From NCBI GenBank assembly GCA_043810925.1, contig JBDRNT010000021.1:1-20385 (forward strand): a DNA stretch of 20,385 bases, written 5' to 3'. Numbering within the stretch: the stretch's first letter is position 1; each line of letters opens with the position of its first letter. The translations under genes and the position numbers were made by a program. This document shows, one piece after another, positions 3,864-20,241 of this stretch. The DNA is from Candidatus Eiseniibacteriota bacterium. Its GTDB lineage: Bacteria; Arandabacterota; Arandabacteria; Arandabacterales; Arandabacteraceae. A model generated the notes under the pieces. That model made no database searches. It saw only the letters and a list, made by a program, of their open reading frames with translations, and was not told the origin of the DNA.

Positions 3864-3865
3864 CG

Positions 3866-5041: not shown

Positions 5042-5057
5042 GGGATTACGTTTGCTG

Positions 5058-5086: not shown

Positions 5087-5101
5087 GATTCCTGCATGAG
5101 C

Positions 5102-5179
5102 GGGGTCGTGGTGCAGCTTGGTTAGCACACTGGCCTGTCAAGCCAGAGGTCGCGGGTTCGAGTCCCGTCGGCCCCGCCA
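5102..5179 (+). tRNA. tRNA-Asp(GTC)
   Basis: Folds as a cloverleaf: acceptor GGGGTCG/CGGCCCC, D stem GTGC/GCAC, anticodon stem CTGGC/GCCAG with GTC at 5137-5139, T arm GCGGG-TTCGAGT-CCCGT, discriminator G and encoded CCA. Confidence 0.97.
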
Positions 5180-5503
5180 GTCCAATTCCTTCCCAGTCGA
5201 GTCTACATCGGTTTTGAGCTCAGACTTTCACTCATGAAACAGAACCAGCCCTATACTGCTTGGCATATACTGGGGACGCCCCTACCCAGAAGTTCTAATC
5301 CCGTATGGGGATCCAGTCTGCATCAAAGGCAGAACCTCGTAGTGCGCTTTCGGACCAACCACATGGCGAGCGGAGGTCGTATGGTTTTTGAGATATGCCC
5401 CGGGTGGTGGATGATGCGGTTCACCACCTCGAAGCGAACTATGAGACGGAGAGGGACATGTCACCGGATCGCAAAGAAAGTTGCTACAGCAGGGCGCTTT
5501 CTA

Positions 5504-5512
5504 TGGTATAAT
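5504..5512 (+). promoter_or_regulatory. Extended -10 promoter candidate for the unit 1 gene
   Basis: TGgTATAAT about 180 nt upstream of ATG 5695; no well-spaced -35. Confidence 0.45.
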
Positions 5513-5694
5513 CCGTGCGAGGCGATAGAGTGTTTCTTAGAAGCTGCTCAAGAAAGTCCACTCTCAGTTGCCGATGTACACCCTAAGAACAAGCAGAGCG
5601 ATTCTGAGACCGGACCTTGACAGTGATATGGCGCGCCGAAACGCGTACTCGACGTGGGGAAGGTGAGGTTCCGGGCCAAGGGAGGTGTGCGGTC

Positions 5695-7566
5695 ATGAGA
5701 AGGTTCATATGGTTGTTAATTGCAGTATGTCTCCTCGTCGGTTTGTCGGGAGTGGCGGCGGCACGAATCAATGAGTCAGAGCAGAATCAGCCAGTGGCCG
5801 TCATGGATGAGCGCCTCGATCTCGGCGATGCGGCCGCCGTGCGCGATTCGTTCTTCAATGATCTACACATTGGAGCCCTCTGGTTTCCCAGCATCTCGAA
5901 CAAGGGATATATAGGGTACTACGATCTCTCAGCCTATTATCCCGGAGGCGCTGACCAGTCCACGGTGTGGCAGGCTGGTATGTGGGCCGGAGGATACGTC
6001 TGGGATGAGGGAGAGGAGGAGTTCTATCCCCTCCCCTGGCATTGGCTCGGGTCGGATGCAAGCCACTGTGACCCTGACTTGTATGATAGTCTCGGCCTGC
6101 AAGCAGTTGTCGACACCGAGACAGATCTTGGCCTGCCTTACCCTTACAGGCGTCTCACAATACGCGTGAACACCGCCTCCAAGCCGCTTGAGGTAAGCGA
6201 GAGAGGCATAATAGACGGGGACATGGGCATGACCGTAACCTTCCAGTGGCACCAGTGGGGTGTTCCCGATTACGACCACTGGGTCTTTGTCCATGTCAGG
6301 ATCGAGTTCACCAAGGCTATCGACGACTTCTACTGGGCTTGGATGAGCGACTGCGACGTAGGTGACGTTTTCTACCACTATGATTACTATCTCGATGATT
6401 ACGCAGGCTGGGATGACAGTCTCAAGTTCTGTTACATGAGAGACTGGGATTATGATCCTCTCATCGGTCAGCCACCCGCAGGATCGACAGAGGATAGCCT
6501 CTTTCTCTCACCAGGTGCCGTCGGGCAGTACCTGCTTGCCGCCCCGCCGGTAGGCGGTCCGGTAACTGCCGATCCTGATGGGGCGCAGAAGTGGGTAACG
6601 AAGAACTACTGGGATTGGAACAATGACTATTCGACCAGACAGGATGCATACGACCGTATTGCCGGTATCTGGGAGAACCCGTTCCCGTCACCAACGGCCT
6701 TCGATTACCGGATTCTGAACGGTGTTGGTCCATACGACGTATCGGCGGGTGATACGGCTCATTTCTGGATGGCTTACGTGGTTGGCGAAGGCTATGACGA
6801 GGCTTCACACGCAACGTATGACCTGGGTGCTCTGGTCAATCATGTCCAGGATGCGCAGGCGTTTTTCGATGGTGGGATGGTGATACCTGCGCCGGACATC
6901 CCGCCGCAAGCGCCCGATTTGAATCCCGACCTGGACTTTGACGTTACCGGCGATACGATAAGGATCGACTGGGCGCCCTACAGCAACATCGCCGGCGGCG
7001 TCACAGCAGACAGTTTCTTCGTTTACCAGAGCGCGGTGAGCAAGCTGGGTCCTTGGGAAAGGGTTGCTGCATTCGATGCTTCTGTGACGGAAACGGAGAT
7101 TGGATTAGTGTCTGCCTGCACCTATTTCTGGGTACAGGCATACGATACAGGCAACCAGGTGGGCAGCGATCCCTATGCCGTTTCGAGTCGCCTGTATGAA
7201 AGGGACGAAGATGGCATCATCCGGGCGGATTGGAGTACCATCGTGTGTGCGGAATCTCCGTTCACCGGGGTTCCACCACAGCCACAGCTGGCAAACAGCC
7301 TGTCCCAGAACTACCCGAACCCGTTCAATCCTACGACAACTATCGCATATTCCATTTCCTCTCCAGGAGAGGTGAATCTTCGAGTATATGATGTATCTGG
7401 TAGCCTGGTGCAAGTCCTCGTGAACGAGCCAAAGGCAGTGGGTGAGTATAGAGCATCCTGGGATGGGCGCGATATAAGAGGAATGAAAGCTGCCCCCGGT
7501 GTCTACTTCATCAGGCTTGAAGCGGACTGGCAGGTGAAGACGAGAACGATTATCTTGCTGGAATAA
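5695..7566 (+). CDS. Secreted acidic protein with C-terminal FlgD-Ig / T9SS type A sorting-like domain
   Basis: GGAGG at 5681-5685 before ATG 5695; signal peptide MRRFIWLLIAVCLLVGLSGVAAA; C-terminus LSQNYPNPFNPTTTIAY...LRVYDVSGSLV...WDGRD...GVYFIRL. Confidence 0.85.
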   Translation: MRRFIWLLIAVCLLVGLSGVAAARINESEQNQPVAVMDERLDLGDAAAVRDSFFNDLHIGALWFPSISNKGYIGYYDLSAYYPGGADQSTVWQAGMWAGGYVWDEGEEEFYPLPWHWLGSDASHCDPDLYDSLGLQAVVDTETDLGLPYPYRRLTIRVNTASKPLEVSERGIIDGDMGMTVTFQWHQWGVPDYDHWVFVHVRIEFTKAIDDFYWAWMSDCDVGDVFYHYDYYLDDYAGWDDSLKFCYMRDWDYDPLIGQPPAGSTEDSLFLSPGAVGQYLLAAPPVGGPVTADPDGAQKWVTKNYWDWNNDYSTRQDAYDRIAGIWENPFPSPTAFDYRILNGVGPYDVSAGDTAHFWMAYVVGEGYDEASHATYDLGALVNHVQDAQAFFDGGMVIPAPDIPPQAPDLNPDLDFDVTGDTIRIDWAPYSNIAGGVTADSFFVYQSAVSKLGPWERVAAFDASVTETEIGLVSACTYFWVQAYDTGNQVGSDPYAVSSRLYERDEDGIIRADWSTIVCAESPFTGVPPQPQLANSLSQNYPNPFNPTTTIAYSISSPGEVNLRVYDVSGSLVQVLVNEPKAVGEYRASWDGRDIRGMKAAPGVYFIRLEADWQVKTRTIILLE

Positions 7567-7599
7567 CAACTCCGCTACGGGCTCACCTTTTCACCGGAT

Positions 7600-7707
7600 C
7601 TATCCCGTGGCGCAAAGATCATAAGCCATCCGTGCCATCTTGGCGCATTCCTGGCTGAAGAGGAAGTTCCGATAGTCGTCCCGTATGGCCCGCCATTGAC
7701 CTTCCCG
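7600..7707 (+). repeat. att-like element copy R1 (core 7678-7695, variant type)
   Basis: Core GTCCCGTATGGCCCGCCA (15/18 to the tRNA 3' end); minus strand reads WRAIRDDYRNFLFSQECAKMARMAYDLCATG*; right flank TTGACCTTCCCG. Confidence 0.92.
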
Positions 7708-7729
7708 CTGTGGGTCCTGGTTTTCTACC

Positions 7730-7758
7730 TTCACGGACAGCCACAACTGTGCTACAAT
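7730..7758 (+). promoter_or_regulatory. Promoter candidate, unit 2
   Basis: TTCACG, 17 nt, TACAAT with extended TG at 7750-7751; GAGGAG RBS follows before ATG 7781. Confidence 0.55.
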
Positions 7759-7780
7759 AACTCCCGAGGAGTTACGAGAT

Positions 7781-8809
7781 ATGGGACGCATGGTATTGGT
7801 ATATGTTTTGACTGTTCTCGTCTTCACGTCGGTATCTTTGGCCCGTGCTTGGTACATCCAACCGGATAGCACGGGTGACGCCCCGACGATCCGGGCCGGC
7901 GCGGACCTGGCGGCGAATGGAGATACGTTGCTACTCGCCGACGGTGTCTATGCAGGAGCAGATAACAAGAATGTGACTGTGGTCAACAGCCGACTCACGA
8001 TTATGTCCGAGAGTGGAGACCCCGAGCTTTGTGTGATTGACTGCGAGGGCTCTGGTAGATTTGCCATCTATGCCGGTGTGTCTGATAGTTCTGCCTCTGG
8101 CCTTGTACAGGGCCTGAAGATCACAGGTGCATCGACAGCCATCGAAGCCAGTGAGGATGTCTCTCTGAGTATCAACAATTGTATTCTCACGGGAAACAGT
8201 GGCCCAGCCGTCAGAGCTTCAGGGATGCCGGCTCAAGACTATGCCAGAATCAATGTTAGCCGGAGCACCTTTTCATCAAATCCTGCTGGTGCAATGTCCT
8301 GCGGCTATAAGTGCGGGCTCACAGCTGGATCATGCACGTTCTTCAATAACGGGCGTATACTGTTTGTTGATGAGCAAGGCTATGGTTCACTATTGAGATG
8401 CACAGTCGCGTTCAACTCGGTCAGCTCCGGAGGGCTAATAGTGAGCTCCTACTCAGGTGTCATAATCAATAAATCGATAATCGCATTCAACAGTGGAAAC
8501 ATAATCGAATACGTAGGTTGGTGTGACGTCGCCTTGGAGTGCTCTGATGTTTATGGTAACACTGCTGGCGATTACGTCGGATGTCTTGCCGGCAGAAATG
8601 GTATTGATGGGAATATCTCTTCTGATCCCCTGTTCTGCGATGTGGCGACTGGGACCTTCACAGTTGAAGAGTGTTCCCCTTGCCTTCCCGGTAACCACCC
8701 GGACAGTGTTGACTGTGATCTGATAGGTGCATGGGATGTTGGATGTGTTTGTGGGCCGTCAGCCACTGAGTCCTCAACGTGGGGTGGAATCAAGAGCCTC
8801 TACAGGTAG
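7781..8809 (+). CDS. Secreted right-handed parallel beta-helix (pectin-lyase-fold-like) protein with TWGxIKxxYR C-terminus
   Basis: Signal peptide; PTIRAGAD..GDTLLLADGVY.G N-cap; repeated xxNCxFxxN-like rungs; GNISSDPLFCD...SPC...IGAW; ends STWGGIKSLYR. Confidence 0.8.
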   Translation: MGRMVLVYVLTVLVFTSVSLARAWYIQPDSTGDAPTIRAGADLAANGDTLLLADGVYAGADNKNVTVVNSRLTIMSESGDPELCVIDCEGSGRFAIYAGVSDSSASGLVQGLKITGASTAIEASEDVSLSINNCILTGNSGPAVRASGMPAQDYARINVSRSTFSSNPAGAMSCGYKCGLTAGSCTFFNNGRILFVDEQGYGSLLRCTVAFNSVSSGGLIVSSYSGVIINKSIIAFNSGNIIEYVGWCDVALECSDVYGNTAGDYVGCLAGRNGIDGNISSDPLFCDVATGTFTVEECSPCLPGNHPDSVDCDLIGAWDVGCVCGPSATESSTWGGIKSLYR

Positions 8810-8818
8810 GAAGCCAAG

Positions 8819-8919
8819 CTATGCCAGATTAGCCACCATCTGTGCCATCTTGGCACATTCCTGACTCATAAGAAAGTTGCGAAAGTCGTCCCGTCGGCCC
8901 CGCCACTGACTTTCCCGTC
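8819..8919 (+). repeat. att-like element copy R2 (core 8888-8905, exact tRNA 3' end)
   Basis: Core identical to 5162-5179; minus strand reads WRGRRDDFRNFLMSQECAKMAQMVANLA*; right flank CTGACTTTCCCGTC. Confidence 0.95.
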
Positions 8920-8940
8920 CAAGCTCTCGTGAATCCACGC

Positions 8941-8969
8941 TTTAATCCCGGACACATCTGTGCCATAAT
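8941..8969 (+). promoter_or_regulatory. Promoter candidate, unit 3
   Basis: TTTAAT, 17 nt, CATAAT with extended TG at 8961-8962; AGGAGG at 8978-8983. Same layout as unit 2. Confidence 0.55.
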
Positions 8970-8990
8970 GACCCCACAGGAGGTGCAAGC

Positions 8991-10034
8991 ATGGGACGCA
9001 TGGTATTGGTATCTGCATTAGCGATTGTTCTCCTCGCATCGGTATGTATGGCCAGAACCTGGTACATCACACCCGACGGCTTTGGAGACCTTCCCACGAT
9101 TCAGGCGGCGGTGGATTCCGCGGCGGAGGGGGACACGCTACTCCTTGCTGACGGCACCTACCGAGGGCCGGGGAACCGCGATGTGACCGTAGACAAGCGC
9201 CTGATAATAAGATCGGAAAGCGATGACCCCGAAGCCTGCATAATCAACTGTGAGGGGAGTTCGGCCTCTCCCCACCGGGCATTCTACATCCCGTTCGGAA
9301 CCGGCCTCCACAGCGAGTTATCGGGTGTATCGGTAGTGAACGGTTGGGATCCCTCATGGGGCGGGGCGGTCCATATTCATGGCCCCGGTGCGGATATTAG
9401 AAACTGCATTTTCCGCGACAATTACGCTGATATGGGTGGGGCGGTCTGGGTCGAGGACTATCGTGGAGGTCCGAGCCTCATCTCAGAGTGCGCCTTTATA
9501 GGCAATTCTGCGGGTTCGGGAGGCGCAGTCTTCGCGAACTACTGGCCAACGCACCTTATAATAGAACGCTCCCTGTTCGCGCGGAACTCGGCCTTTACTG
9601 GCACCATTGTGATAGAGGCCGAGAGATTTCCGGAAATCGTCGTGGAGATAAACAACTGCACCATGGTTGATAACTCTGGCTGGTACTCGGCTGTGTGGAA
9701 CAAGACCTTCGACACATATTGCTGTGTTATCAGGAATTCCATCATCGCCTACGGTACCGGAGAATACCAACCGGTCCTGGACTGCCGTGTACAGTGCTCG
9801 GCTTTCTATGAGAACCAGCCCTACCCCGATTGGCTGCCGGCTGGTGATGGGAACTTCTCGGCTGACCCCCTCTTCTGTGATACTCTGAGTGGTGACTTCC
9901 ATCTTGATTGCAGATCACCCTGTGCGCCTGCTCAACAACCTGAATGTGGCTTGATAGGTGCCTGGGACGTAGGTTGTGGCCCATCTCAGACTGAGCCCAC
10001 AAGCTGGGGCAGAATCAAGTCGATGTACAGGTAA
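8991..10034 (+). CDS. Secreted right-handed parallel beta-helix protein, paralogue of 7781-8809
   Basis: Signal peptide; PTIQAAVD..GDTLLLADGTYRGPGN; GGAV/FxxN repeats; GNFSADPLFCD...SPC...IGAWDVGC; ends SWGRIKSMYR. Confidence 0.82.
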   Translation: MGRMVLVSALAIVLLASVCMARTWYITPDGFGDLPTIQAAVDSAAEGDTLLLADGTYRGPGNRDVTVDKRLIIRSESDDPEACIINCEGSSASPHRAFYIPFGTGLHSELSGVSVVNGWDPSWGGAVHIHGPGADIRNCIFRDNYADMGGAVWVEDYRGGPSLISECAFIGNSAGSGGAVFANYWPTHLIIERSLFARNSAFTGTIVIEAERFPEIVVEINNCTMVDNSGWYSAVWNKTFDTYCCVIRNSIIAYGTGEYQPVLDCRVQCSAFYENQPYPDWLPAGDGNFSADPLFCDTLSGDFHLDCRSPCAPAQQPECGLIGAWDVGCGPSQTEPTSWGRIKSMYR

Positions 10035-10043
10035 AAAGCCGAG

Positions 10044-10146
10044 TCATGCCAGATTAGTCACCATCTGTGCCATCCTGGCGCATTCCTGACTCATCAGAAA
10101 GTTGCGATACTCGTCCCGTATGGCCCGCCATTGAATCTTGGCGAGC
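10044..10146 (+). repeat. att-like element copy R3 (core 10113-10130, variant type)
   Basis: Minus strand reads WRAIRDEYRNFLMSQECARMAQMVTNLA*; right flank TTGAATCTTGGCGAGC. Confidence 0.95.
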
Positions 10147-10276
10147 CCGATATCCCTGTATAACCTCAGACTCCCGAAGCAGCATATAGCACATAACGGC
10201 TCTCACTAGGGTGAGGACCTCATCATGATGAGGATGTCATTCGGGCTTTGGTATAAGTAGAAGCGTGGTCTCCATG

Positions 10277-11572
10277 TCAGCCCTCAGCGAAGTAGCCTGG
10301 ATTAAGGACTCTGCCCACGAAAAGAATCGTATTCGTGTAGCGTTCGCGAATCACGAACATGAAAGGATGGTCGACCTTGATCGTGAAAGATGAACACTCC
10401 GGCGGAACGCTTGTCGGTCCACATTCAACTTCCGTTACTGCAGCAGCCTCGGTGCCGACCTCATTAACCCTGACATAGGTCTTATGACGAACGGCCGTGA
10501 TCTGGAGTGCCATGCTGCGACACATCTCTGAGAAGTCAGCATCCCCGAAGGCCTCTCCCATGCCAAGAGCAGTCAGCACATCATTCATCACCAAATTGTA
10601 TTTCAGCTCGAATCTCGGCATGAGGAGTACTCCCCTGCAGGTATGAAAGCTGCTTGTCAGGCTGTCCCAGCGGTCGGGATTGAGCCACGATATTATCTCA
10701 TCAACATCCTGCCCATGACGCGGCAAGAGCAGCGTCATGGTGAACAGACTATCACCGTAGGGCAGATCAACGGCCTGGAAGTGATCGTTAAGCACCACAC
10801 TGTAATCAGCGAGGAGTTCCGTGACATCGGATGGTGGAGGAAACTGTGGTCTGGACATCATCCTGCAAGGTGTTTTCGGTTCATTCGGTGGATGAAACCA
10901 ATCGTCCTTGGTATCCGCGGGATCAAACTGATACTGCCAGTTACCGAGGAAGTAGATCGCATTGACAAGGATTATCATTGTCGCAGGGTCAATGGGCTTC
11001 GGGACAATCTCTGTGATCTTGCCATGAGTCTTCTCATCAACCCATCCATTGATGATGTCTGATGCGTCAGGCTGGTCGAAGTCAAGGCTGCTTACCTCGG
11101 CATCGAAACACGTCCGGCAGGCTTCGAGAAACGGCGCTTCGAATATCACTCCGCTCCTGCCCCAGATGGAATTCGCGATCTCGAATAGCACTTCGGGATC
11201 CAGGCCTGTCAGAAGATCGATCAGGTCCCTGTAACATTGATCTGCACTCTCCGTGCTATACCCCGGAAATCCAAGTGTCATAAGCATGGAATCAAGGGTT
11301 GATCCGCCAGCCCCATTCATGGTCATACCAAGTGCCATGGAAACGCTTAAGGGGGATATGAAGATGTTACTATCGGATTGCGCCTTCACAATCTCCTTGA
11401 AAAGCCTGAAGGCGAAGTCATTATTAGCGGAGACCAGTATCTCCTGAGAGAGAGGATCACCACTGTGCTCTTCGTCACTCTGTGGACACAGAGAGTCCCG
11501 CCCGCAGCCCGCAAGGGCGATCAACATGAATACCGAGAAAAACAGACCGAAGGTCCTAATTCCTCTTCCCAT
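10277..11572 (-). CDS. Serpin (serine protease inhibitor) lipoprotein
   Basis: Lipobox LAGC; NNDFAFRLF, NIFISPLSVSMALGM, INGWVDEKTHGKI, LVNAIYFLGNW, hinge EVGTEAAAVT and DHPFMFVIRE...ILFVGRV. Confidence 0.96.
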   Translation of the reverse strand: MGRGIRTFGLFFSVFMLIALAGCGRDSLCPQSDEEHSGDPLSQEILVSANNDFAFRLFKEIVKAQSDSNIFISPLSVSMALGMTMNGAGGSTLDSMLMTLGFPGYSTESADQCYRDLIDLLTGLDPEVLFEIANSIWGRSGVIFEAPFLEACRTCFDAEVSSLDFDQPDASDIINGWVDEKTHGKITEIVPKPIDPATMIILVNAIYFLGNWQYQFDPADTKDDWFHPPNEPKTPCRMMSRPQFPPPSDVTELLADYSVVLNDHFQAVDLPYGDSLFTMTLLLPRHGQDVDEIISWLNPDRWDSLTSSFHTCRGVLLMPRFELKYNLVMNDVLTALGMGEAFGDADFSEMCRSMALQITAVRHKTYVRVNEVGTEAAAVTEVECGPTSVPPECSSFTIKVDHPFMFVIRERYTNTILFVGRVLNPGYFAEG

Positions 11573-11666
11573 ACCGCAGCCCCCAATGCCTGCAGCCGAG
11601 GATCCAAGCGTTCCTCTGACTCCGAGCTGAGCTTACCATGCTAACGTGAGTACTGCAAGGGAAGAA

Positions 11667-11767
11667 TCACGTAGCGACGGCGACCATGCGGGCCGTCTCC
11701 AGACACTCCTCAGACCTCAGAAAGTTCCGATACTCGTCCCGTATGGCCCGCCACTGACTTTCCCGTC
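11667..11767 (+). repeat. att-like element copy R4 (core 11736-11753, variant type)
   Basis: Left arm diverged in DNA but the minus strand still reads WRAIRDEYRNFLRSEECLETARMVAVAT*; right flank CTGACTTTCCCGTC is identical to R2. Confidence 0.92.
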
Positions 11768-11997
11768 TGTTTTCGACATTACTTATCGATGCTTCTCCGC
11801 ATGTGACGATTATCTCGCTTGGAAGTCCCGCCGAACCAGTAAGGAGGTCCCCGCTGAAGGCTGGAAATTAAACCATGTTGACATACAGGACAGAATGGAG
11901 GAGCATACAGCCTGTGCGAAAGCGGAAGCCGTGCTTAATGTGGTTAACCGGATCAACATAAGTACCAGTTAGCTGCTTGAGGAAAAGGAGTCCGTGA

Positions 11998-13161
11998 ATG
12001 AGGACGCACGTCAAAGCTAATCAATTCAGCGTGGCAATGCGGATCGCGTTGCCCCTTCTAATCTCATCGGCCATGGCTTGCGCGGCATCGTCCTCTATGT
12101 CGAGCCGTCCGACGGGGCGCGCGTTCACGGAAGCCGATGCGCTCTTCCGCCGGGACCCGAGCTGGCTCGGTGCCGATGCCGCACTTTCGGTTCCACTCGG
12201 CAACGGTCGCACACTCTGGCTCTTTGGTGACACATTCGTCGCCAAGTCGAATGCCCATGTGCGCTCAGAGTCCCCAATGGTAAGGAACACGGTCGCGATC
12301 CAGACGGGGGAGGATCTGCGCACTGCCTCGATCACGTTCCACTGGGGGCGGAAGAGTGATGGCTCGCCGGCATCGTTTTTTCCAAAGCGCGGGCAGTACT
12401 GGTATTGGCCTGGGCACGGGATTCGGCTCGATGAAGGGCCGCTGGTCATCTTTCTATACGCGATGGTCGAGACACCAGGCCAGGGTCTTGGCTTTGCGAG
12501 CGCGGGCTACGCCATCGCCGTGATCAACGATCCAGATGCATCGGTGGAAACATGGAACCCGCGCATTGTCGATGTCGCTCCGAGCAGCTTCGATGCCATT
12601 CCTGCGACGGCGGTGATCCAGGACGGCGCGTACATCGTTGCTGTTGGCATCCGCCAAGAAGGAACGCACGCTGGCGCGCTCGTTCGCTACCCGACGCACC
12701 TGCTGGCACAGGGTGATGTCGACAGCGCTGAATGGTGGGCGGGTGATGAGCGCGGGTGGGTCCCGGAATCCTCACTCGGCGAAGGTGGTCCGGCGTTCGT
12801 TATGGACGACGCGGGAAGCGAATGCTCGCTCCACTGGGATGAGCGCTCGGGATCATTCATCCACGTTGCGAGCTACGGCTTTGGCGCGTCGACGATCGGG
12901 CTGCGTACTGCACCTGCGCTCACAGGCCCCTGGAGTCACCCGGTCGTCGTCTACCGTCCGCCCGAGTCGGATGGTCCGCAACCATTCGTGTACGCGGCGA
13001 AGGCTCACCCGGAGCTGGTCGGCCCAGACGCCGCCGACCTCGTCGTGACGTACGCCACGAACAGTTTCGAGTTCGGGGATCTGTTTACGGAAGAAGGCGC
13101 GCGTTCTCTATACTGGCCGCGAGTCGTCCTCGTGCGGGTAGGAAAGGGAGGTGTGTGGTAG
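11998..13161 (+). CDS. Exported DUF4185/DUF5005-like protein (probable beta-propeller, possibly carbohydrate-active)
   Basis: AAGGAG RBS; hydrophobic N-region with Cys; WLGAD...GRTLWLFGDTF, APALTGPWS, YAAKAHPEL and YWPR motifs recalled from this family. Confidence 0.7.
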   Translation: MRTHVKANQFSVAMRIALPLLISSAMACAASSSMSSRPTGRAFTEADALFRRDPSWLGADAALSVPLGNGRTLWLFGDTFVAKSNAHVRSESPMVRNTVAIQTGEDLRTASITFHWGRKSDGSPASFFPKRGQYWYWPGHGIRLDEGPLVIFLYAMVETPGQGLGFASAGYAIAVINDPDASVETWNPRIVDVAPSSFDAIPATAVIQDGAYIVAVGIRQEGTHAGALVRYPTHLLAQGDVDSAEWWAGDERGWVPESSLGEGGPAFVMDDAGSECSLHWDERSGSFIHVASYGFGASTIGLRTAPALTGPWSHPVVVYRPPESDGPQPFVYAAKAHPELVGPDAADLVVTYATNSFEFGDLFTEEGARSLYWPRVVLVRVGKGGVW

Positions 13162-13169
13162 GTGGAAGC

Positions 13170-13228
13170 AGCTATCAAGGGCACGCGGTGGACACGCTGA
13201 CGATCGCCGATGATGCACAACGTTAGCC
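13170..13228 (+). other. Degenerate integron attC site (59-base element)
   Basis: Starts 8 nt after the stop. R''-like AGCTATC to R'-like GTTAGCC spans 59 nt. AAGCAGCTATC (13166-13176) matches the reverse complement of GTTAGCTGCTT (11968-11978) at 10/11. Confidence 0.65.
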
Positions 13229-13259
13229 TCAGCAGGTCAACAAGGCCAAGTCTGTATTC

Positions 13260-13362
13260 TCAAGTTAGATTAGCCACCAAATGTGTCACTTTGACACACT
13301 CCTGGCTTAATAGAAAGTTCCGATACTCGTCCCGTATGGCCCGCCATTGAATCTCAGCGAGC
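13260..13362 (+). repeat. att-like element copy R5 (core 13329-13346, variant type)
   Basis: Minus strand reads WRAIRDEYRNFLLSQECVKVTHLVANLT*; right flank TTGAATCTCAGCGAGC (14/16 to R3). Confidence 0.95.
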
Positions 13363-13531
13363 TCAATGCATAGGTCATAGATCCAATCCTCTTCAGCTGC
13401 GCCAAGACCAGCATCCCAATGCGGGAAGTCTCCCAGCCTTGAACATGCACTCATATTTGGTGTAGTCCCATACAGTGGACGCGAGAACATGCAATGACGT
13501 ACGCGAATAGCTGCAGGCCATAGTACGAGGG

Positions 13532-13740
13532 ACTGACAGTGATGAAGGCGGGGCCCATTGATGTCCTCCGACGGACGGTGGATTGCTTTCGCTCGGAGTA
13601 ATGAACTTCTGCTCCTGGACATATCCTTCTATCAAGAGACCCCCATAACGTGCATGAACAGTGCGTGTTCTGACTCACTCGCGTGGATCGTCTGGATTAG
13701 CCAATGGATCTCCTTGTCTTCCCAGAGAAGATCCTACTGA
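13532..13740 (+). pseudogene. Possible decayed TolB/PD40 beta-propeller fragment
   Basis: SSDGRWIAFARSNELLLLD resembles the PD40 motif SPDGxxIAF; TDSDEGGP lies just upstream in a shifted frame; no intact ORF. Confidence 0.4.
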
Positions 13741-13963
13741 CCCTGAGTGCAGTCTCATCGGCGCGTGGGGAAAAGCGTGTGGTTCCAGGCAAGATACCGA
13801 GTAGAGACGCGCGAAACGGCCAGAACAGGCTTTGAGGCCCGTACAGAACTCAAGCGCTTCGCTGTGCGTGATTGATGTGAAATTGCACACTTGGGTGAAC
13901 CGGAGATTTCAATAATTCCCGGCGTGGCGCTGAGGGCAGACGAGCAGTACTGGTACAATATGC

Positions 13964-13992
13964 TTGACACTCAGGCGTGTCTGGACCATGAT
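13964..13992 (+). promoter_or_regulatory. Sigma70-type promoter candidate for the unit 6 gene cluster
   Basis: TTGACA, 17 nt, CATGAT; AGGAGGAGG RBS before ATG 14048. Confidence 0.5.
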
Positions 13993-14047
13993 CGCATCCT
14001 GCAATGCTAAGCCTGTTGACAGCATCAGGCAATAGGAGGAGGACAAG

Positions 14048-14542
14048 ATGAAGAGTACTCGATTGATTCTGATTGGAGCTGCAATGGCGATAGCCCTGGG
14101 TCCCGTTCTTGCTCTGGCCGGTCCAGACACCGACATCGGCTTCCGCGGCTGGGGCCCGCGGGTAGGATTGTCGCTCGACCCCGACCAGGTCCACTTCGGC
14201 GCTCACCTCGATTTCGGCAACTTCGCCCGGCACGTCCGCTTTCAACCCAACGTGGAGTTGGGCTTCGGGGATGACATGAAGATCTTTACTGTCAACGCTG
14301 AGGCAGCGTATCGCTTCCGCTCACAATGGGACGTCTGGACTCCGTACCTCGGCGGTGGTCTTGGCGCGAACATCAAGAGCTTCGACAACGTGGGAAACAA
14401 CAACTCGCAGACCGACCTAGGCGTCAACCTGCTCGGCGGGATCGAGAGAGGGCTCTCAAACGGTGACCGTTTCTTCATCGAGGGCAAGTTCAGCCTGAAC
14501 GACGTGCCAGACGCCAAGGTCACGGTCGGCTGGACGTTCTAA
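14048..14542 (+). CDS. Small outer-membrane beta-barrel protein
   Basis: Signal peptide, alternating amphipathic strands, PYLGGGLG and terminal aromatic VTVGWTF. Confidence 0.85.
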   Translation: MKSTRLILIGAAMAIALGPVLALAGPDTDIGFRGWGPRVGLSLDPDQVHFGAHLDFGNFARHVRFQPNVELGFGDDMKIFTVNAEAAYRFRSQWDVWTPYLGGGLGANIKSFDNVGNNNSQTDLGVNLLGGIERGLSNGDRFFIEGKFSLNDVPDAKVTVGWTF

Positions 14543-14559
14543 CACTAGCCATGGGGCAA

Positions 14560-14596
14560 AGAGGGGCGCCGTCGGTTGGCACCGCCCCTCTCGTTT
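14560..14596 (+). terminator. Possible intrinsic terminator or processing hairpin
   Basis: AGAGGGGCG (14560-14568) pairs with CGCCCCTCT (14583-14591); weak U-tract CGTTT. Confidence 0.45.
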
Positions 14597-14622
14597 CCCG
14601 GTAGTACAAGAGGAGGTTTCAT

Positions 14623-14772
14623 ATGTTGTGGGCGATCGCAGTCGTATTCATCGTTCTATGGCTGCTCGGCCTTGTTACGTCCTTCACGATGCACGGCTTC
14701 ATCCATATTCTGCTTGTGATCGCCGTGATTGCTGTGCTGGTCCGCATCATTCAAGGGCGAAGGGTGCTGTAG
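14623..14772 (+). CDS. lmo0937-family small membrane protein (49 aa; absent from the ORF track)
   Basis: AGGAGG RBS; translates as MLWAIAVVFIVLWLLGLVTSFTMHGFIHILLVIAVIAVLVRIIQGRRVL, matching the family pattern LWLLG...GxIHILLVxA. Confidence 0.88.
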   Translation: MLWAIAVVFIVLWLLGLVTSFTMHGFIHILLVIAVIAVLVRIIQGRRVL

Positions 14773-14828
14773 ACGGGGCTTCGGCCAGAAGAAGCCTGGG
14801 ACATAAACTTTATGGAGGAGTGTTTGAC

Positions 14829-15461
14829 ATGTGGATCATTCGAGGCATTCTTGTTGCAGTTCTAAGTCTGTGCTTTGTGCTGCCGGCTGCAGCTCAGTAC
14901 ATCGGCGTCATGCAGTCCGCCGAGACGGTGGACAAGGGCACGTTCAAACTCATGGTTGGCCCGGTCCTGGCATTCGGCGAGAACGGAGCAGATAACGAGT
15001 TCGGGATCGCGGCCCGTGGCGGGTACGGATTCACCGACCGCTTCGACGCCGAAGCCAATCTGGGCTTCTTTGAGAATAGCACCTTTGTCGGCGCGGATGG
15101 CGAGTTGTGGATTCTGAAGGGTCAGGAAAAGTATACCGGCCTGGATTTCTCGTTGGCGGGAGGCGTCCACTGGATGCTCGGTAAAGACAATCATTTCGAC
15201 ACCATGGGATTCGAGCTCACACCGCTGTTCAGCGGGCATGTGAACAAGAGCCTGGAGCTGTACGGCGCTCTGGATGTCTCGTTCGAGTCGATCAAGGATA
15301 CCCCGCCGGGGTTCGACGACACGTTCACGAGATTGCACCTCGTGCCCGGAATCGAGTACCGCCTGTCTGACAAAGCGGACCTGGTTGGCGAGATCGGTAT
15401 CGGGCTCAACGACGACTCGTTTTCCTATGTGGGGGGTGGCATCGCTTTCTACCTGCGCTGA
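14829..15461 (+). CDS. Outer-membrane beta-barrel protein
   Basis: GGAGGAG RBS before ATG 14829; signal peptide ending PAAAQ; amphipathic strands; C-terminal GGGIAFYLR. Confidence 0.8.
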   Translation: MWIIRGILVAVLSLCFVLPAAAQYIGVMQSAETVDKGTFKLMVGPVLAFGENGADNEFGIAARGGYGFTDRFDAEANLGFFENSTFVGADGELWILKGQEKYTGLDFSLAGGVHWMLGKDNHFDTMGFELTPLFSGHVNKSLELYGALDVSFESIKDTPPGFDDTFTRLHLVPGIEYRLSDKADLVGEIGIGLNDDSFSYVGGGIAFYLR

Positions 15462-15560
15462 CGGGGAGTGGTCTGGTCATCGCCCTTGCTGTCTGGTGGC
15501 TCCGGCCGACTCCGGCCGGGGTACCGGCAGGCGGGCATAGATTAGGAAAGGGCAAGTGAA

Positions 15561-15773
15561 ATGAGAATCTTTGGAATCGTACTCGTGGTCCTAGGAGTTA
15601 TCGCGCTGGTCTACGGCGGAATCAGCTACAACAAGAACCGGACGGTCCTCCAGATGGGTGATATGACCGTTACCGCCACGGAGCATAAGAGCATTACGGT
15701 CCCGGCAGTCGTCGGTGTGGTTATGCTGATCGGCGGCGGCGCACTTCTGGTGGTCGGCAAGCGCCGTTCCTAG
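15561..15773 (+). CDS. Small two-TM membrane protein (DUF3185-like)
   Basis: 70 aa; two hydrophobic helices flanking a short soluble beta-rich loop. Confidence 0.8.
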   Translation: MRIFGIVLVVLGVIALVYGGISYNKNRTVLQMGDMTVTATEHKSITVPAVVGVVMLIGGGALLVVGKRRS

Positions 15774-15838
15774 CCCGATTCGCGGACTTGGAGATGTCTC
15801 GCTGGCAATTGCATTCGTTCAAGACGGGTGGACACGGT

Positions 15839-17284
15839 ATGGCCAGTCGCAGATCTGTTTTCGCCGTTGTGGCGGTTCTCATGTTGCTTTTGATCCCCCT
15901 AGCTTGCGCCATCAATCCCGTCACGGGCAAGAAGGAATTCATGCTGGTCACGGAAGGCGACGAAATCGCCCTTGGAAAGCAGGCCGATCAGGAAATCGGT
16001 CAGACCTACGGCATCTACGACAATTCAGGGTTGTCGAATTGCGCCAACCGGATCGGTCAAGATATGTCCAAGGTGACACAGCGGCCGAATCTCGAATACC
16101 ATTTCCAGGTGTTGGACACGCCAGTCATCAATGCGTTTGCCGGGCCCGGCGGATACGTCTACGTAACACGTGGCATTATGGCTTACTTTAACGACGAGGC
16201 CGAGCTGGCCGGCGTGATCGGACACGAACTCGGCCATGTGAGCGCCAGACATGTAGCCCAGCAGATTAGCCGCCAGCAGGTTGCCCAGCTCGGGCTCGGG
16301 GTCGGCATGATCTTTTCGGAAGATTTCAGAAAGTACTCCGGTCTGGCCCAGTTCGGCGCGAGCATGCTGTTTCTTAAATTCAGCCGTGACGACGAGCGTC
16401 AGGCAGACGACCTCGGAGTCGAATACGCGAGCAAGGCGGGTTACGACACCAATCGGATGGCTTCGTTTTTTCAGACCTTGGAAAGAGTCAATCCGGGAGG
16501 CAACGGGGCCTTGCCGGATTGGTTCTCAACGCATCCCAATCCGGAGAACCGGATTGCGGCGGTAAACAATGCGACCGAGGAATGGCGCCGGAGACTTGAT
16601 CGTACCCAGTACGCGGTCAATCGTAACGATTATCTGAAAGTGGTTGACGGAATCATATACGGTGACGACCCGCGGCAGGGATACGTGGAGGGCGATGCGT
16701 TTTACCATCCGACTATGGAATTCACCCTTCCGGTTCCAAGCGGCTGGCGGGTTACCAACACGCCTGCACAGGTCCAAGTCCTTTCGGATAAACAGGACGC
16801 CGTGATTCTGCTTATGCTGGACGGTTCCGGGTCTGTCTCTCAGGCGGCAGATCGGTTTGTGCAGGACGCCCATGCCGCCGTGCAGTCGAGGGAACACCTG
16901 GTTGTCAACGGACTTCAAGCTGAAAAGGTCGTTTCGCGGCTGGTGTCCGAGCAAGACACACTTCGGGCCATGTCCTACTTCATTGCCAAAGGCGGAGCCA
17001 TTTACGCTCTCCATGGGCTGACCGGACAGACTGCATTCTCACAGTACTCGCCGACGTTTTCCAGAACATTCGGCGGGTTCAAGAATCTGGACGATCCGTC
17101 CAAGATCAACGTGCAACCCGAGAGGCTCGCTGTCAAAACCGTCACCAAGGCCGGCAGTTTGAGAACGCTCTTGAAGCAATTCGGTACGCCGGAGAGCGAA
17201 CTCGAGAATATAGCCGTCTTGAATGGTATGCAGCTGGAAGACAATGTGAGCGCGGGTACGCTGATAAAGATCGTGGCAAAATGA
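15839..17284 (+). CDS. M48-family zinc metalloprotease lipoprotein
   Basis: Lipobox LAC followed by AINPVTGK; NAFAGPGGYVYVTRG, HELGH, FSRDDERQAD and STHP; LysM-like C-terminal tail. Start placed at ATG 15839. Confidence 0.92.
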   Translation: MASRRSVFAVVAVLMLLLIPLACAINPVTGKKEFMLVTEGDEIALGKQADQEIGQTYGIYDNSGLSNCANRIGQDMSKVTQRPNLEYHFQVLDTPVINAFAGPGGYVYVTRGIMAYFNDEAELAGVIGHELGHVSARHVAQQISRQQVAQLGLGVGMIFSEDFRKYSGLAQFGASMLFLKFSRDDERQADDLGVEYASKAGYDTNRMASFFQTLERVNPGGNGALPDWFSTHPNPENRIAAVNNATEEWRRRLDRTQYAVNRNDYLKVVDGIIYGDDPRQGYVEGDAFYHPTMEFTLPVPSGWRVTNTPAQVQVLSDKQDAVILLMLDGSGSVSQAADRFVQDAHAAVQSREHLVVNGLQAEKVVSRLVSEQDTLRAMSYFIAKGGAIYALHGLTGQTAFSQYSPTFSRTFGGFKNLDDPSKINVQPERLAVKTVTKAGSLRTLLKQFGTPESELENIAVLNGMQLEDNVSAGTLIKIVAK

Positions 17285-17390
17285 TCTCACTTGCTCTCCG
17301 TGATGGTGCGGGCGCATTGGTTGGCAGTGGGCTACTGAGCATAGGATTGGGATCGGTCGCGAGGTCACGAAAGGAGGAAGCGGAGAAGAC

Positions 17391-17558
17391 ATGAATCCAC
17401 TCATCGGTCTTGCCGTTCTGGTGCTGGATGTCGTCGCGATCGTGGATTGCCTCAAGAGGCCCATGGCGACAGGCAAAAAAGCTCTGTGGATCATCTTAAT
17501 CCTGGTGCTGCCAGTGGTCGGGATGATTCTGTATTTCCTGTTAGGCAGAAGAAAATAG
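17391..17558 (+). CDS. PLDc N-terminal-domain small membrane protein (55 aa; absent from the ORF track)
   Basis: Translates as MNPLIGLAVLVLDVVAIVDCLKRPMATGKKALWIILILVLPVVGMILYFLLGRRK, matching the KxxWxxxIxxxPxxGxxxYxxxG pattern; purine-rich RBS. Confidence 0.88.
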   Translation: MNPLIGLAVLVLDVVAIVDCLKRPMATGKKALWIILILVLPVVGMILYFLLGRRK

Positions 17559-17640
17559 AGAGACGAGTTATCACCTGGCCCGGAATCCAATCGGGCAGGC
17601 AGGAAGTGGGCGAGGTCCCAACGAATGTAAGGAGGTCAAT

Positions 17641-18306
17641 GTGAAGACGCTTATCGTATTGAGTTTGGCAGGTTTGTTGATGCTTGGAAATCTCAGCTGC
17701 GGCTGGACTCGAGCAGAAAAAGGGACAGTCATAGGTGCCGGTGCGGGAGGCGCGATCGGCGGTGCCATCGGAAATAAGGCTGGTAACACTGCAGTAGGCG
17801 CGATCCTGGGCGCCGCGGTTGGTGGCGTCGCCGGTGCATACATCGGCGATTACATGGACAAGCAGGCGGCCGAACTGCAAGAGGAACTCGAGAACGCGAG
17901 AATCGAGCGCATTGGTGAAGGCATCAAGGTCACCTTCGATTCAGGGATTCTGTTTGATTTTGACAAATCCACTTTGAGGCCTGCAAGCCAGGAACAGATC
18001 ACGAATTTTGCTCAGGCTCTCACGAAGTACGAGGACACGGACATTTTCATCGCGGGACATACCGATGCTACCGGCTCGGAGGATTACAACATGACATTGT
18101 CCCGCCAGCGGGCGGAGTCGGTCGCGAACTACATGGAGAAGCTGGGCGTGAGCCGGACGCGCTTCACGATAACGGGATTCGGTGAGACCCAGCCCATTGC
18201 GAGCAACGAGAGCAATGAAGGCCAGCAGCTCAATCGCCGTGTCGAAGTTGCAATCTATGCAAACGCCAAGCTGAAGGAAATCGCCGAGGAACAGACCCAG
18301 GGCTAG
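17641..18306 (+). CDS. OmpA-family lipoprotein with glycine zipper (YiaD-like)
   Basis: AAGGAGG RBS, GTG start, LSC lipobox, GAGAGGAIGGAIG zipper, ILFDFDKS, GHTDATG, LSRQRAESV and NRRVE. Confidence 0.94.
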   Translation: MKTLIVLSLAGLLMLGNLSCGWTRAEKGTVIGAGAGGAIGGAIGNKAGNTAVGAILGAAVGGVAGAYIGDYMDKQAAELQEELENARIERIGEGIKVTFDSGILFDFDKSTLRPASQEQITNFAQALTKYEDTDIFIAGHTDATGSEDYNMTLSRQRAESVANYMEKLGVSRTRFTITGFGETQPIASNESNEGQQLNRRVEVAIYANAKLKEIAEEQTQG

Positions 18307-18516
18307 AGCGATCGGAATCGAGCCTTACAGTCTGAACGAGGGTATTGGCGATCTTGGCCAATGGATTCTCCGGGGCATAGGTTAGGGAAATGGAGTTCTT
18401 ATGGGCACCCAAGCCTGACAATACTCTAAAAGGAGGGCAGAGCGTTGTTACGGTGTAGGGGACTGATTGACTCTGCATCACGCTGTGCATTACACCACGA
18501 AAGGGGCGCAGTAGAT

Positions 18517-18951
18517 ATGTTAACACGAACAGCTTTACTCGCTATTGTCATGATGTGTGTCCTGGCTTATGCGGGAGTTGCGGTAGGACAAGACAATCTT
18601 CAAACCTACTTCAACGGCACCGCATGCAAAGTGAAGGCAACGGCCGACCCGTCGCAGAAGCGCGCAATCCTCAGCGAGGGACTTCAGAAGATGTCCAAGG
18701 CGTTGGACATGGTTGAAAGCTCAACGCTGGTCTCGGAAGGCGACCGCGCAGGGATTGATCGCTTCAAAGCCACCCTCCAGGAGAGACAGAATGAGCTCGC
18801 CGGTACGAATGGCTTCGATCGTGTGCCCGATGAGCAACTGAATGCCTTCGCTGATTTCGTCGTCCAGGACATGGAGCAGGCGGACCGGACGGTAAACATC
18901 AGTTTGGTCACACTGCTCTTGATCATAATCATTGTGATCCTGGTCGTGTAG
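18517..18951 (+). CDS. Hypothetical exported helical protein with C-terminal hydrophobic anchor
   Basis: Signal peptide from ATG 18517; ends LVTLLLIIIIVILVV. Confidence 0.75.
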   Translation: MLTRTALLAIVMMCVLAYAGVAVGQDNLQTYFNGTACKVKATADPSQKRAILSEGLQKMSKALDMVESSTLVSEGDRAGIDRFKATLQERQNELAGTNGFDRVPDEQLNAFADFVVQDMEQADRTVNISLVTLLLIIIIVILVV

Positions 18952-18985
18952 TCTCGGCATAGAGTGAGCATTGTCGGCTTTAGGT

Positions 18986-20107
18986 ATGCGAAGCAGGCAC
19001 AACCGATTCTTGACGAGCGCCACCCATGCGTGCTCGATGCCCATAGTGGGCGCCGCTTGCGTGGCGCTCGCGTTGTTGCTGTCTTCGTGCAGCTCAACCC
19101 GCCCCGCCCGCCGTGCAACCCCACTTGTCGAGGAGAGTGCGCCCCCGCCACGCTACTCAATCGTAATTATCATCCACGGCGATGGGGCCTACCTCTATCA
19201 TGATACTGATGGCAATGCGCACAGAGCAGATGAGGAGACTCTCAAGAGAGCCAAAACGGTTGCGGAGCGGAACGCGGAAGCAGAGGTGTTCATCTTTCAC
19301 GAGAGACGCCGGAGGCACTTCCTGCTCTTTTTCCCTGTCCGTGACGGAACCTTCTATTACTACCGGCACGGACGGCTCCTCGCCGAAGAATCATACTGGC
19401 GCGATCAGGGACAATTGCGTTTCGATCCCGAAATGGAGCTCTATAACCGCTTCCGCGTGGAAGAATCACCTGAGCTGGTGAGATTGTTCTTGTACTTCGG
19501 CCACGAAATCCCCGAATTCGGCGGGGCGGGCTACGATGCGTCGTACAAAAATCGGACGTTCGCAATGGATGACCTCGCGGCCGTATTGAGGCACATCACA
19601 CGTGATTCCACGAAGGTTGATCTCGTGGTGCTCTCCACGTGTTTTGGCGGCACCCCCCGCAGCATCGCTGCGCTTGCTCCGTACGCACGATACATCATCG
19701 CTTCTCCCGGCAATCTTCACCTCTCATACTTCGACCTCAGCCCATTTGAGCGATTGGATATCGGTTTGCGAGCCGAGGATGTGTCCAGGTTTGCAGATAC
19801 ATTCGCTCAGCATGCGTTCAACAGGCTGACAGAAGACACACAGACGGCGGTCACTGTCGTCGTGTACGATGTGGATCGCGTCCAGGGATTCTTGAACTCC
19901 GTCGGCAGCATCTACGACGAGGCTTTGACCGCATTGAAGGGGAAAACGCCGGCATCCATTGAGCACTGCGATTGCGCCGAAGATCCTGCGTACGCGTTGC
20001 CGGGGATGAACGAGGGAATAGCGGTACTCTATCGCCCGCCGCGCTTCGGACGCTTAAAGCACAAAGAGAGCCATTCCGGATGGGAATGCTGGAGGCTCTT
20101 GAAATAA
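18986..20107 (+). CDS. Hypothetical lipoprotein, possible clan CD (clostripain/CHAT-like) peptidase fold
   Basis: LSSC lipobox; strand-His motif LFLYFGHE and strand-Cys motif DLVVLSTCFGG followed by ARYIIASP. Start codon uncertain. Confidence 0.6.
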   Translation: MRSRHNRFLTSATHACSMPIVGAACVALALLLSSCSSTRPARRATPLVEESAPPPRYSIVIIIHGDGAYLYHDTDGNAHRADEETLKRAKTVAERNAEAEVFIFHERRRRHFLLFFPVRDGTFYYYRHGRLLAEESYWRDQGQLRFDPEMELYNRFRVEESPELVRLFLYFGHEIPEFGGAGYDASYKNRTFAMDDLAAVLRHITRDSTKVDLVVLSTCFGGTPRSIAALAPYARYIIASPGNLHLSYFDLSPFERLDIGLRAEDVSRFADTFAQHAFNRLTEDTQTAVTVVVYDVDRVQGFLNSVGSIYDEALTALKGKTPASIEHCDCAEDPAYALPGMNEGIAVLYRPPRFGRLKHKESHSGWECWRLLK

Positions 20108-20181
20108 TCCAGCCTTGTGCGAAATGCTCGCATAGGGTCATGCAACCGCACAGCACTTGTTTTCTGTACGGTTTTCTTTTC

Positions 20182-20241
20182 TTAGAATTGCCCACTTTGG
20201 CTGAAGTGTGAAGTTTCATACTCGTCCCGTCGGCCCCGCCA
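20182..20241 (+). repeat. att-like element copy R6 (core 20224-20241, exact tRNA 3' end; degenerate left arm)
   Basis: ATACTC followed by the exact 18-mer; TGGCTGAAG..GAAGTT upstream aligns with R1; minus strand reads WRGRRDEYETSHFSQSGQF*. Confidence 0.88.

Follow-up and report, generated by a model that had tools for sequence, protein, structure and literature searches.

Co-oriented repeats at and beyond a tRNA-Asp gene bound small gene units in a Candidatus Eisenbacteria family and look like an undescribed gene-shuffling system

The contig of a Candidatus Eiseniibacteriota bacterium analyzed here carries, downstream of a tRNA-Asp gene, a row of gene units closed by repeats that end in copies of the tRNA 3' end. 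Arrays bounded by the same repeat were found elsewhere in this metagenome-assembled genome (MAG) and in its relatives. These repeat-bounded arrays look like an undescribed gene-shuffling system. We consider it possible, with a probability of about 0.45, that they are site-specific cassette arrays that depend on a trans-acting recombinase.

The window, that is, the whole stretch analyzed, is the entire contig C21 (20,385 nt; W in comparisons between loci) of a 3.85-Mb MAG in 185 contigs with a completeness of 92%. This MAG is genome G000; the letters G, C, and L denote genomes, contigs, and loci, and FAM denotes gene families. Relatives are Candidatus Eisenbacteria-labeled MAGs of the same family, and all genomes compared are incomplete, fragmented MAGs. 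The last 18 nt of tRNA-Asp (5162-5179) are called the core, and the conserved ~76 nt before a core are called the arm.

Repeats of the tRNA-Asp 3' end bound gene units in the window

A repeat search of the window placed the 18-nt tRNA end at 5162 and its recurrences at 7678, 8888, 10113, 11736, 13329, and 20224, all on the + strand, with core-to-core spacings of 2516, 1210, 1225, 1623, 1593, and 6895. These are exactly the six recurrences listed in a preliminary description of this DNA, which had been made from the letters alone. With a 20-nt query from the tRNA end and up to 3 mismatches, 3 matches were obtained as opposed to 0 in 100 shuffles. Two cores, at 8888 and 20224, match the tRNA end exactly (18/18), and the other four match it at 15/18 and have a common variant, GTCCCGTATGGCCCGCCA.

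A repeat family of ~108 nt (D1; 60-80% identity; starts at 7609, 8819, 10044, 11667, and 13260) precedes and includes the cores. The first five cores are the 3' part of a ~100-nt repeat, and the sixth, at 20224, retains only ~38 nt of the arm. The preliminary description had placed a related arm before every core, which is true of five copies (~76 nt), the sixth keeping only a remnant. It had also assigned a single gene to nearly every unit; units 2 to 5 do hold one each, and unit 1 holds two open reading frames (ORFs), at 5234-5620 (doubtful) and 5617-7566. Its view that the repeats bound gene units is supported, as is its statement that no recombinase ORF lies in the units or beside the tRNA: Pfam returned no recombinase among the 20 ORFs of the window, and none of the genome's 14 PF00589 matches is on this contig. 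The features of the window are as follows.

5' of tRNA-Asp: SIS/MurQ-like gene, sugar ABC transporter genes, and anmK (Pfam)
5102-5179, + strand: tRNA-Asp(GTC), the sole tRNA-Asp called by ARAGORN (Rfam tRNA, 68.7 bits)
5180-5320, + strand: native tRNA-downstream flank (flankN), which recurs after two arm-cores in L022 and one in L028
~5285-5315, + strand: degenerate GGGGA-type site closing flankN, read by eye from an alignment
5234-5620: doubtful ORF of unit 1, 5' of the gene with a type IX secretion system (T9SS) tail
5617-7566, + strand: unit 1 gene, 649 aa, with a T9SS C-terminal sorting domain (Pfam FlgD_ig, Por_Secre_tail)
7609-7707, + strand: site S1, arm, variant core (7678-7695), and ~12 conserved nt (83 bits)
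7781-8809, + strand: unit 2 gene, beta-helix protein, 342 aa (Pfam)
8819-8917, + strand: site S2, arm and exact core (8888-8905; 95 bits)
8991-10034, + strand: unit 3 gene, beta-helix paralogue, 347 aa (Pfam)
10044-10142, + strand: site S3, arm and variant core (10113-10130; 98 bits)
10277-11572, - strand (opposite): unit 4 gene, serpin, 431 aa (Pfam Serpin, E 3e-102)
11667-11765, + strand: site S4, arm and variant core (11736-11753; 84 bits)
11998-13161, + strand: unit 5 gene, DUF4185 protein, 387 aa (Pfam)
13260-13358, + strand: site S5, arm and variant core (13329-13346; 89 bits)
13359-20197: 6.9-kb multigene block with two outer membrane protein beta-barrels, an M48 peptidase, an OmpA-like protein, and a C11-like peptidase (Pfam)
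20198-20247, + strand: site S6, degenerate arm remnant and exact core (20224-20241; 24 bits)
20245-20385, + strand: contig-end overlap of 141 nt, 100% identical to the end of another contig (G000:C86, 4431-4571)

With Rfam (E up to 1), the tRNA was the only hit in the window. The beta-helix proteins of units 2 and 3 are paralogues (38% identical); the last ~70 nt of their genes are 80% identical, and this similarity (repeat family D2) continues into the arm. Three neighboring units encode proteins that start with MGRMVL (7781-7800), MGRMVL (8991-9010), and MGRGIR (11572-11553, - strand). The unit proteins are predicted, by eye from their N-termini only, to be exported. The 6.9-kb block contains no full arm; a 26-mer within it (18560-18585) is 73% like the middle of the arm, which could reflect a relic site or mere chance. 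Three nucleotides past S6, the assembly is interrupted at the exact 141-nt overlap, which suggests a branch of the assembly graph at the site. The first gene on C86 is FAM14, which in G001 (L023) is followed by an Asp-type arm.

The arm occurs throughout the genome with two end classes

A profile built from 9 arm copies and applied at E < 1e-3 gave 30 hits on 13 contigs of the MAG, 9 of the hits being the training copies. The profile search of the genome and its relatives that the preliminary description had proposed thus found the arm well beyond the tRNA locus. Six of these contigs hold at least two arms, and on each of the six the arms are co-oriented. The arm copies keep 60-95% identity while the sequence around them differs.

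A tRNA-Asp-type end follows the arm in 13 of the 30 hits (six on C21, three on C33, and four on C7, the last 3' of the second tRNA-Asp). In the other 17, the same 76-nt arm is followed by …GTTGGGGGAG… in place of the tRNA-Asp end; this second class reads …GTCGTCCCGT and, past the break, TGGGGGAG(G/C)C…GCGGAACATGTCA. The left 76 nt of the site, ending in GTCGTCCCGT, are conserved family-wide, and the end classes part immediately past GTCCCGT. The tRNA and the Asp-type sites have in common GTCCCGT and the next 11 nt. One contig, C143, has five arms with non-Asp ends within 6.7 kb, and Asp-type and GGGGAG-type ends occur together in single arrays (L028 and L085).

These findings revise the preliminary description, in which a single, tRNA-derived type of site was anchored at the tRNA. 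Two end types are mixed within one array, and the same arm is present, in arrays and singly, on 10 other contigs that lack the tRNA-Asp core. Genome-wide scatter of the repeat independently of tRNAs, which that description had itself held to speak against it, is found in part, on these 10 contigs. It was right on the architecture (site-bounded units, no recombinase in cis, turnover at the tRNA end) and wrong on the tRNA as the defining anchor and on the closeness of the analogy with integrons, which holds for the architecture and fails for the sites, these not being attC-like.

The second end class is similar, not identical, to the 3' end of the family's tRNA-Asn (…TCCTGCCCGGGGAGCCA), a likeness that we take as no more than a lead. 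Of the 41 tRNA genes of the MAG, two are for tRNA-Asp and none for tRNA-Asn. In relatives, several 25-nt partial tRNA-Asn 3' fragments that include the T-loop stand without a full tRNA (L120 and L123-L128, in G001, G011, and G007); they look like att scars of other, unrelated islands. Units without a gene were also seen (L081 [G065] 1266-1425, L085 1444-1599, and L033 620-820), in which a short arm with a GGGGAGCCA end stands no more than 30 nt behind tRNA-Asp, or two arms lie 50-130 nt apart. A tRNA-like fold or a hammerhead in the arm was ruled out by eye: the T-stem has no partner, and CTGATGAG is not conserved.

Orientation, content, and distribution of the arrays

Arms were co-oriented in all 17 contigs or loci with at least two of them (6 in this MAG and 11 in relatives), amounting to 37 consecutive agreements. 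The orientation of genes relative to the arm varies: 39 of 57 upstream genes and 36 of 55 downstream genes point the same way as the arm. The median distance from the upstream stop codon to the arm is 84 nt, as opposed to 257 nt from the arm to the next start. Pfam families in the units include AbiEi/AbiEii pairs (n = 2), MqsR, SpoIIE, NHL, beta-helix, serpin, and DUF4185, and many unit ORFs match no Pfam family. The GC content ranges from 0.52 to 0.63 from unit to unit, and the order of shared units differs between genomes.

The arrays are present in MAGs from several separate, independent assemblies. BLAST with one arm (E up to 0.001) had hits in 11 of 61 genomes, including this MAG; without it, the arm was found in 9 of 12 genomes of the family, in 1 of 3 of the sister family, and in none of the 45 others. 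With a stricter cutoff (E up to 1e-6), 8 of the 18 genomes available for the phylum had hits. A degenerate 21-nt site motif matched 82 stretches in the genome collection, as opposed to ~26 estimated by chance, and had 0 matches in a collection of viral contigs. Many of the 82 stretches are in Atribacterota-labeled MAGs and a few other genomes. In these, a 40-nt homologue of the arm core (…CTCATACAAAAGTTGCGAAAATCGTCCTGTCTGGGGAGCC) is followed by a terminator-like hairpin; three Atribacterota-labeled MAGs contain 4 to 6 copies each, and copies on the same contig are co-oriented.

Related loci differ by units, once exactly at the tRNA 3' end

Synteny of anmK and tRNA-Asp is retained in 12 of 13 family genomes, and G000 and G011 have two such loci each. 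The block of murQ-like, ABC transporter, anmK, and tRNA-Asp genes occurs in this MAG at window positions 1-5179 and on G000:C7 (L011 7386-12918), with 65-75% nucleotide identity and tRNA-Asp genes that are 100% identical. Since the same block is also found twice in G011 (C185 and C316), its duplication is a family trait and not a binning error.

As the preliminary description had anticipated for relatives at this locus, unit content and order differ. The anmK-tRNA flank of the window is 86-91% identical to that of G011:C185 up to the CCA, and the homology ends at 5179. Past the CCA, G011:C185 (L022) contains an extra ~1.8 kb made up of the gene FAM13, an arm, and an 18-nt core, after which comes the sequence that stands directly behind the tRNA in the window (W 5162-5311 = L022 4170-4022, 75%). 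This is a gain or loss of one unit exactly at the tRNA 3' end.

On G000:C7, four arm-closed units lie between tRNA-Asp and the gene FAM9; on G007:C48, tRNA-Asp is followed by one unrelated gene and then by FAM9 (76% identity to C7), with no arm. In G009, arms stand on both sides of FAM9, after which comes FAM10, the tRNA-adjacent gene of C7. No arm was found within 2-12 kb downstream of anmK-tRNA-Asp in any of the six loci retrieved (G002, G004, G005, G007, G008, and G010). Some units are shared together with their arms: window unit 3 is 76% identical, arm to arm, to G003:C92; a two-gene AbiE unit is common to G000:C143 and G007:C150, the downstream arm being contiguous in the alignment; and where L009 4924-6583 matches L030, the arm is contiguous with the gene. 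For empty-site synteny within the genus, G001 was too diverged (74-83% nucleotide identity). In public reads (four runs, as short Logan contigs), a few joints with short sides were found at or near arms, and one Logan contig of 1252 nt runs exactly core to core (8888-10119).

A possible mechanism and what weighs against it

In the mechanism that we favor, the region would be a series of small gene units, each ending in a recombination site of ~100 nt that consists of the conserved 76-nt arm and a right end occurring in classes, one of which is the tRNA-Asp 3' end. A unit would move as start, gene, arm, and core when two such sites, or one site and the 3' end of tRNA-Asp, undergo conservative site-specific recombination. 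A unit with an exact tRNA end could then insert at the tRNA without breaking it. Recombination as the process, the position of the crossover, and the enzyme are what we infer from the anatomy of the sites and the differences between loci.

The units carry no recombinase, so the enzyme would have to act in trans; it may be chromosomal and Xer-like. XerC and XerD are present in this MAG. Only three PF00589 genes each, and no resolvase, were found in the arm-rich relatives G001 and G011; the three are taken to be Xer-like from matches to the C112 recombinase and to the XerC, XerD, and C161 types of the MAG. This small set in two array-bearing relatives makes a housekeeping-type Xer-like enzyme the leading, unproven candidate, a guess by elimination. 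Two other recombinase loci were observed. Four tyrosine-recombinase genes stand in a row on a 4.5-kb contig of this MAG (G000:C32, L005, 14-3986), three of them as a tight co-directional trio. In L135 (G065:C39), a 543-aa ORF at 9368-11032 with a serine-recombinase-like N-terminus (YARVST…, by eye) abuts tRNA-Asn and lies ~2 kb from an arm-like site.

Several observations weigh against this mechanism. None of the arrays has a linked recombinase; in tblastn, the 10 tyrosine recombinases of this MAG gave nothing at E 1e-5 in all loci from L009 to L117. Neither does any recombinase family follow the presence of the arm across genomes, no correlation being found for the C112-type recombinase, PF00589, PF00239, IntI, or Y1 transposases. 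Four of the six window cores, with 3 of 18 positions mismatched, could not restore the tRNA. A single arm only is present on 7 of the 13 arm-bearing contigs. The arms beside shared genes are not mutual closest relatives in either direction (the matching arm ranks 3-14 among ~58 after the gene and 1-20 before it), so the arm does not clearly travel with the gene. No circular or deletion junction was seen in the public reads, of which four runs were covered as Logan contigs; the 6 runs found contained only 6-9% of the sampled words, and circles are neither shown nor excluded by them. Lastly, arm substitutions are 3-periodic and coding-like on the antisense strand, which a recombination site alone does not predict.

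Should the sites recombine, the arrays would be a new bacterial route to build and reshuffle arrays of single accessory genes without an integron integrase or attC structure, and the tRNA end would be one docking point. They would also broaden the search for cassette systems in uncultured phyla and offer a testable substrate of ~100 nt in which arm and end class part at a defined point, GTCCCGT. A more far-reaching version strikes us as doubtful: a second, integron-independent cassette platform with sequence-conserved ~100-nt sites and tRNA-3'-end-like right halves, served in trans by a chromosomal Xer-type recombinase, seeded at tRNA-Asp and spread elsewhere, shared across phyla (the Eisenbacteria family and Atribacterota-labeled MAGs), with a translated antisense microprotein of 16-35 aa per site that has a role in the system.

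An antisense coding-like frame in the arm

Over 60 arm copies, the column entropies by phase are 0.997, 0.566, and 0.760 (permutation p ~2e-4). The phase fits an antisense frame that reads …(L)PQRDDFRNFL-MSQECAKMAQMVANLA and then a stop; in the Atribacterota-type copies, MSEETEKVYHKLEEIISIC occupies the equivalent place. An example in the window is the frame of the S2 arm (8819-8923, - strand; …QWRGRRDDFRNFLMSQECAKMAQMVANLA, then stop), which is also found in S3, S4, and S5. In 36 of 47 copies, the frame is open across 34 codons and closed by a stop, and the stop is conserved in 42 of 47. The remaining 11 copies either are interrupted by an in-frame stop shortly before this stretch or do not have the closing stop. 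No conserved start codon was found in the 47 copies.

A profile of the peptide, searched against 1.84 billion proteins, gave 107 hits, nearly all of them ORFs of 24-177 aa with the peptide at the C-terminal end; no hit belongs to a known family. No larger protein with the peptide as a domain was among them; three long hits with many short stretches look spurious. Pfam and NCBIfam searches of 10 peptide-bearing ORFs returned nothing below E ~1e-3, and the ESM Atlas gave no usable hit for the peptide. It is possible that the arm peptide is translated, or else that the periodicity is a relic.

Alternative explanations

The arm could instead be a self-spreading short intergenic element, such as a miniature inverted-repeat transposable element, a repetitive extragenic palindrome, or a palindrome-associated transposable element, or a tiny gene or small RNA, copied by a trans-acting transposase or by gene conversion. 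The "cassettes" would then be variable genes between copies in flexible regions, and co-orientation would come from strand-specific (e.g., lagging-strand) insertion. The contigs with single arms, the antisense periodicity with its conserved stop, the 107 ORFs, and the arms that do not co-travel with neighboring genes all fit such an element, as do the homologues before terminator-like hairpins in the three Atribacterota-labeled MAGs. Y1-transposase-like genes occur in the genome, and one such ORF in an Atribacterota-labeled MAG (L130, G061:C60, 5155-5727; …HYHLL…, by eye) lies ~700 nt from an arm-type site at 6415-6434. Against copying of the arm alone stand the 1.8-kb unit indel, which duplicates the 18-nt tRNA end and displaces the native flank, and the arm that is contiguous with the gene in shared units such as that of L009 and L030. 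Moreover, no terminal inverted repeats or target duplications were recognized by eye, the 11 of 47 copies described above cannot encode the peptide or lack its stop, and PF01797, found in 14 of 19 genomes, does not follow arm presence (G007 has arms and no PF01797 match). Taken together, we think this explanation rather unlikely; if it were correct, the arm would still be an undescribed repeat family with a strict orientation rule.

Alternatively, the arrays could be the decayed remains of classical islands that integrated at tRNA-Asp one after another, each having lost its integrase and left one gene and an attR arm. A direct repeat of the tRNA 3' end at the boundary of an intact tRNA, the hallmark of such islands, is found here, S6 closes the 6.9-kb multigene block as an ordinary attR would, and relatives contain the 25-nt tRNA-Asn fragments of unrelated islands. 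In Prochlorococcus, the tycheposons and tRNA-anchored islands are several kb long and encode both a tyrosine or serine recombinase of their own and replication genes (10.1101/2020.12.28.424599). Like the arrays described here, they show partial tRNA copies from 3'-end integration, tandem elements divided only by a partial tRNA, and degenerate remnants. Unlike them, the units here are 1.2-2.5 kb long and lack a recombinase, and the arm is also joined to a non-tRNA-Asp end. An element-encoded tyrosine or serine recombinase, expected of an island, was found in none of the array loci, and neither was an integrase fragment. Decay also does not readily account for uniformly small units in several genera, for an arm held at 60-95% identity where all else differs, for the same arm bounding arrays with a non-tRNA-Asp end far from any tRNA, or for the permuted unit order. 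The 40-nt core is conserved in nucleotide sequence between GC-rich and AT-rich phyla, a puzzle alongside the micro-ORF, and both point beyond simple island decay, which we regard as improbable.

An ordinary integron cassette array without an integrase, with the arms as attC sites, is a very remote prospect. Clusters of attC sites without an integrase (CALINs) and single attC sites are known (PMC4889954; 10.1101/2022.09.11.507474). Integron arrays and CALINs resemble the present arrays in their ~100-nt co-oriented sites behind mostly single, promoter-poor genes; in toxin-antitoxin units and family-less genes; in arrays and lone sites without a linked integrase; and in unit order shuffled between genomes. 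True integron integrases are encoded in 5 of 13 family genomes (403-471 bits in TIGR02249, cutoff 265). The arms, unlike integron attC sites, are conserved in sequence and not in structure and lack an R''/R' hairpin. One of their end classes is a copy of a tRNA 3' end, and there is no IntI in the MAG, whose best TIGR02249 scores were 112-194 bits. Eight folds (-10 to -22 kcal/mol, z +0.2 to -2.6) gave local hairpins only and no end-to-end pairing. Two local hairpins were 76.1% paired as opposed to 73.4% in shuffles, and 4 of 500 shuffles attained their covariation score. Inspection by eye showed no RYYYAAC…GTTRRRY inverted core. Control attC sites beside the IntI of G008 (C79) fold as a single long hairpin that runs from CTAAC to GTTAG (-35 to -38 kcal/mol, z -2.9 and -5.1) and are unrelated to the arm; nhmmer with --max at E up to 1 found one arm hit in six IntI loci (4.3 bits, E 0.9, L169). 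On folding, the missing inverted core, and the unrelated controls, the arms were rejected as attC sites.

The integron loci themselves had features of their own. Canonical attC hairpins of ~105 nt lie beyond the 3' end of intI in G008, and IntI in G008 and G006 adjoins a conserved gene pair of 441 aa and 258 aa. The loci recorded are L166 (G008:C79, 137-2597 and 3317-4537), L164, L165, L167, and L168.

An assembly or binning artifact is hardly credible: the MAG is fragmented into 185 contigs, some break beside arms, and there are two anmK-tRNA-Asp loci, but the arm copies differ from one another (60-90% identity) and so are not collapsed duplicates, independent MAGs have the same architecture, and G011 likewise has both loci.

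Relation to known systems

A literature search on Eisenbacteria together with integrons found nothing, and the nearest published concepts among those consulted are the CALINs and tycheposons discussed above. Three further systems share traits with the arrays. Cis-mobilizable elements (CIMEs) form by accretion beside integrative and conjugative elements (ICEs) or integrative and mobilizable elements (IMEs) and derive from a resident ICE or IME that supplies the integrase. They, too, are att-flanked units without recombination genes, in tandem at the target site of a trans-acting integrase. On the array contigs of these fragmented MAGs, no resident ICE or IME was seen.

Integrative mobile elements exploiting Xer (IMEX) at dif and the pdif modules of Acinetobacter plasmids are moved by the host XerC/XerD in trans. 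They resemble the units here as integrase-less modules, often with toxin-antitoxin pairs, that stack in tandem at one site. No 28-bp dif-like XerC/XerD site was recognized in the arm, which was inspected by eye only. The pdif sites alternate in orientation, whereas the sites here are direct. In the tyrT operon of Escherichia coli (rtT RNA, Tpr peptide), the repeats are contiguous 178-bp units that have no intervening genes and are not dispersed. They share with the present repeats a tRNA 3' end repeated in tandem downstream and a small peptide frame within the repeat; unlike them, the copies described here are dispersed, with genes between them.

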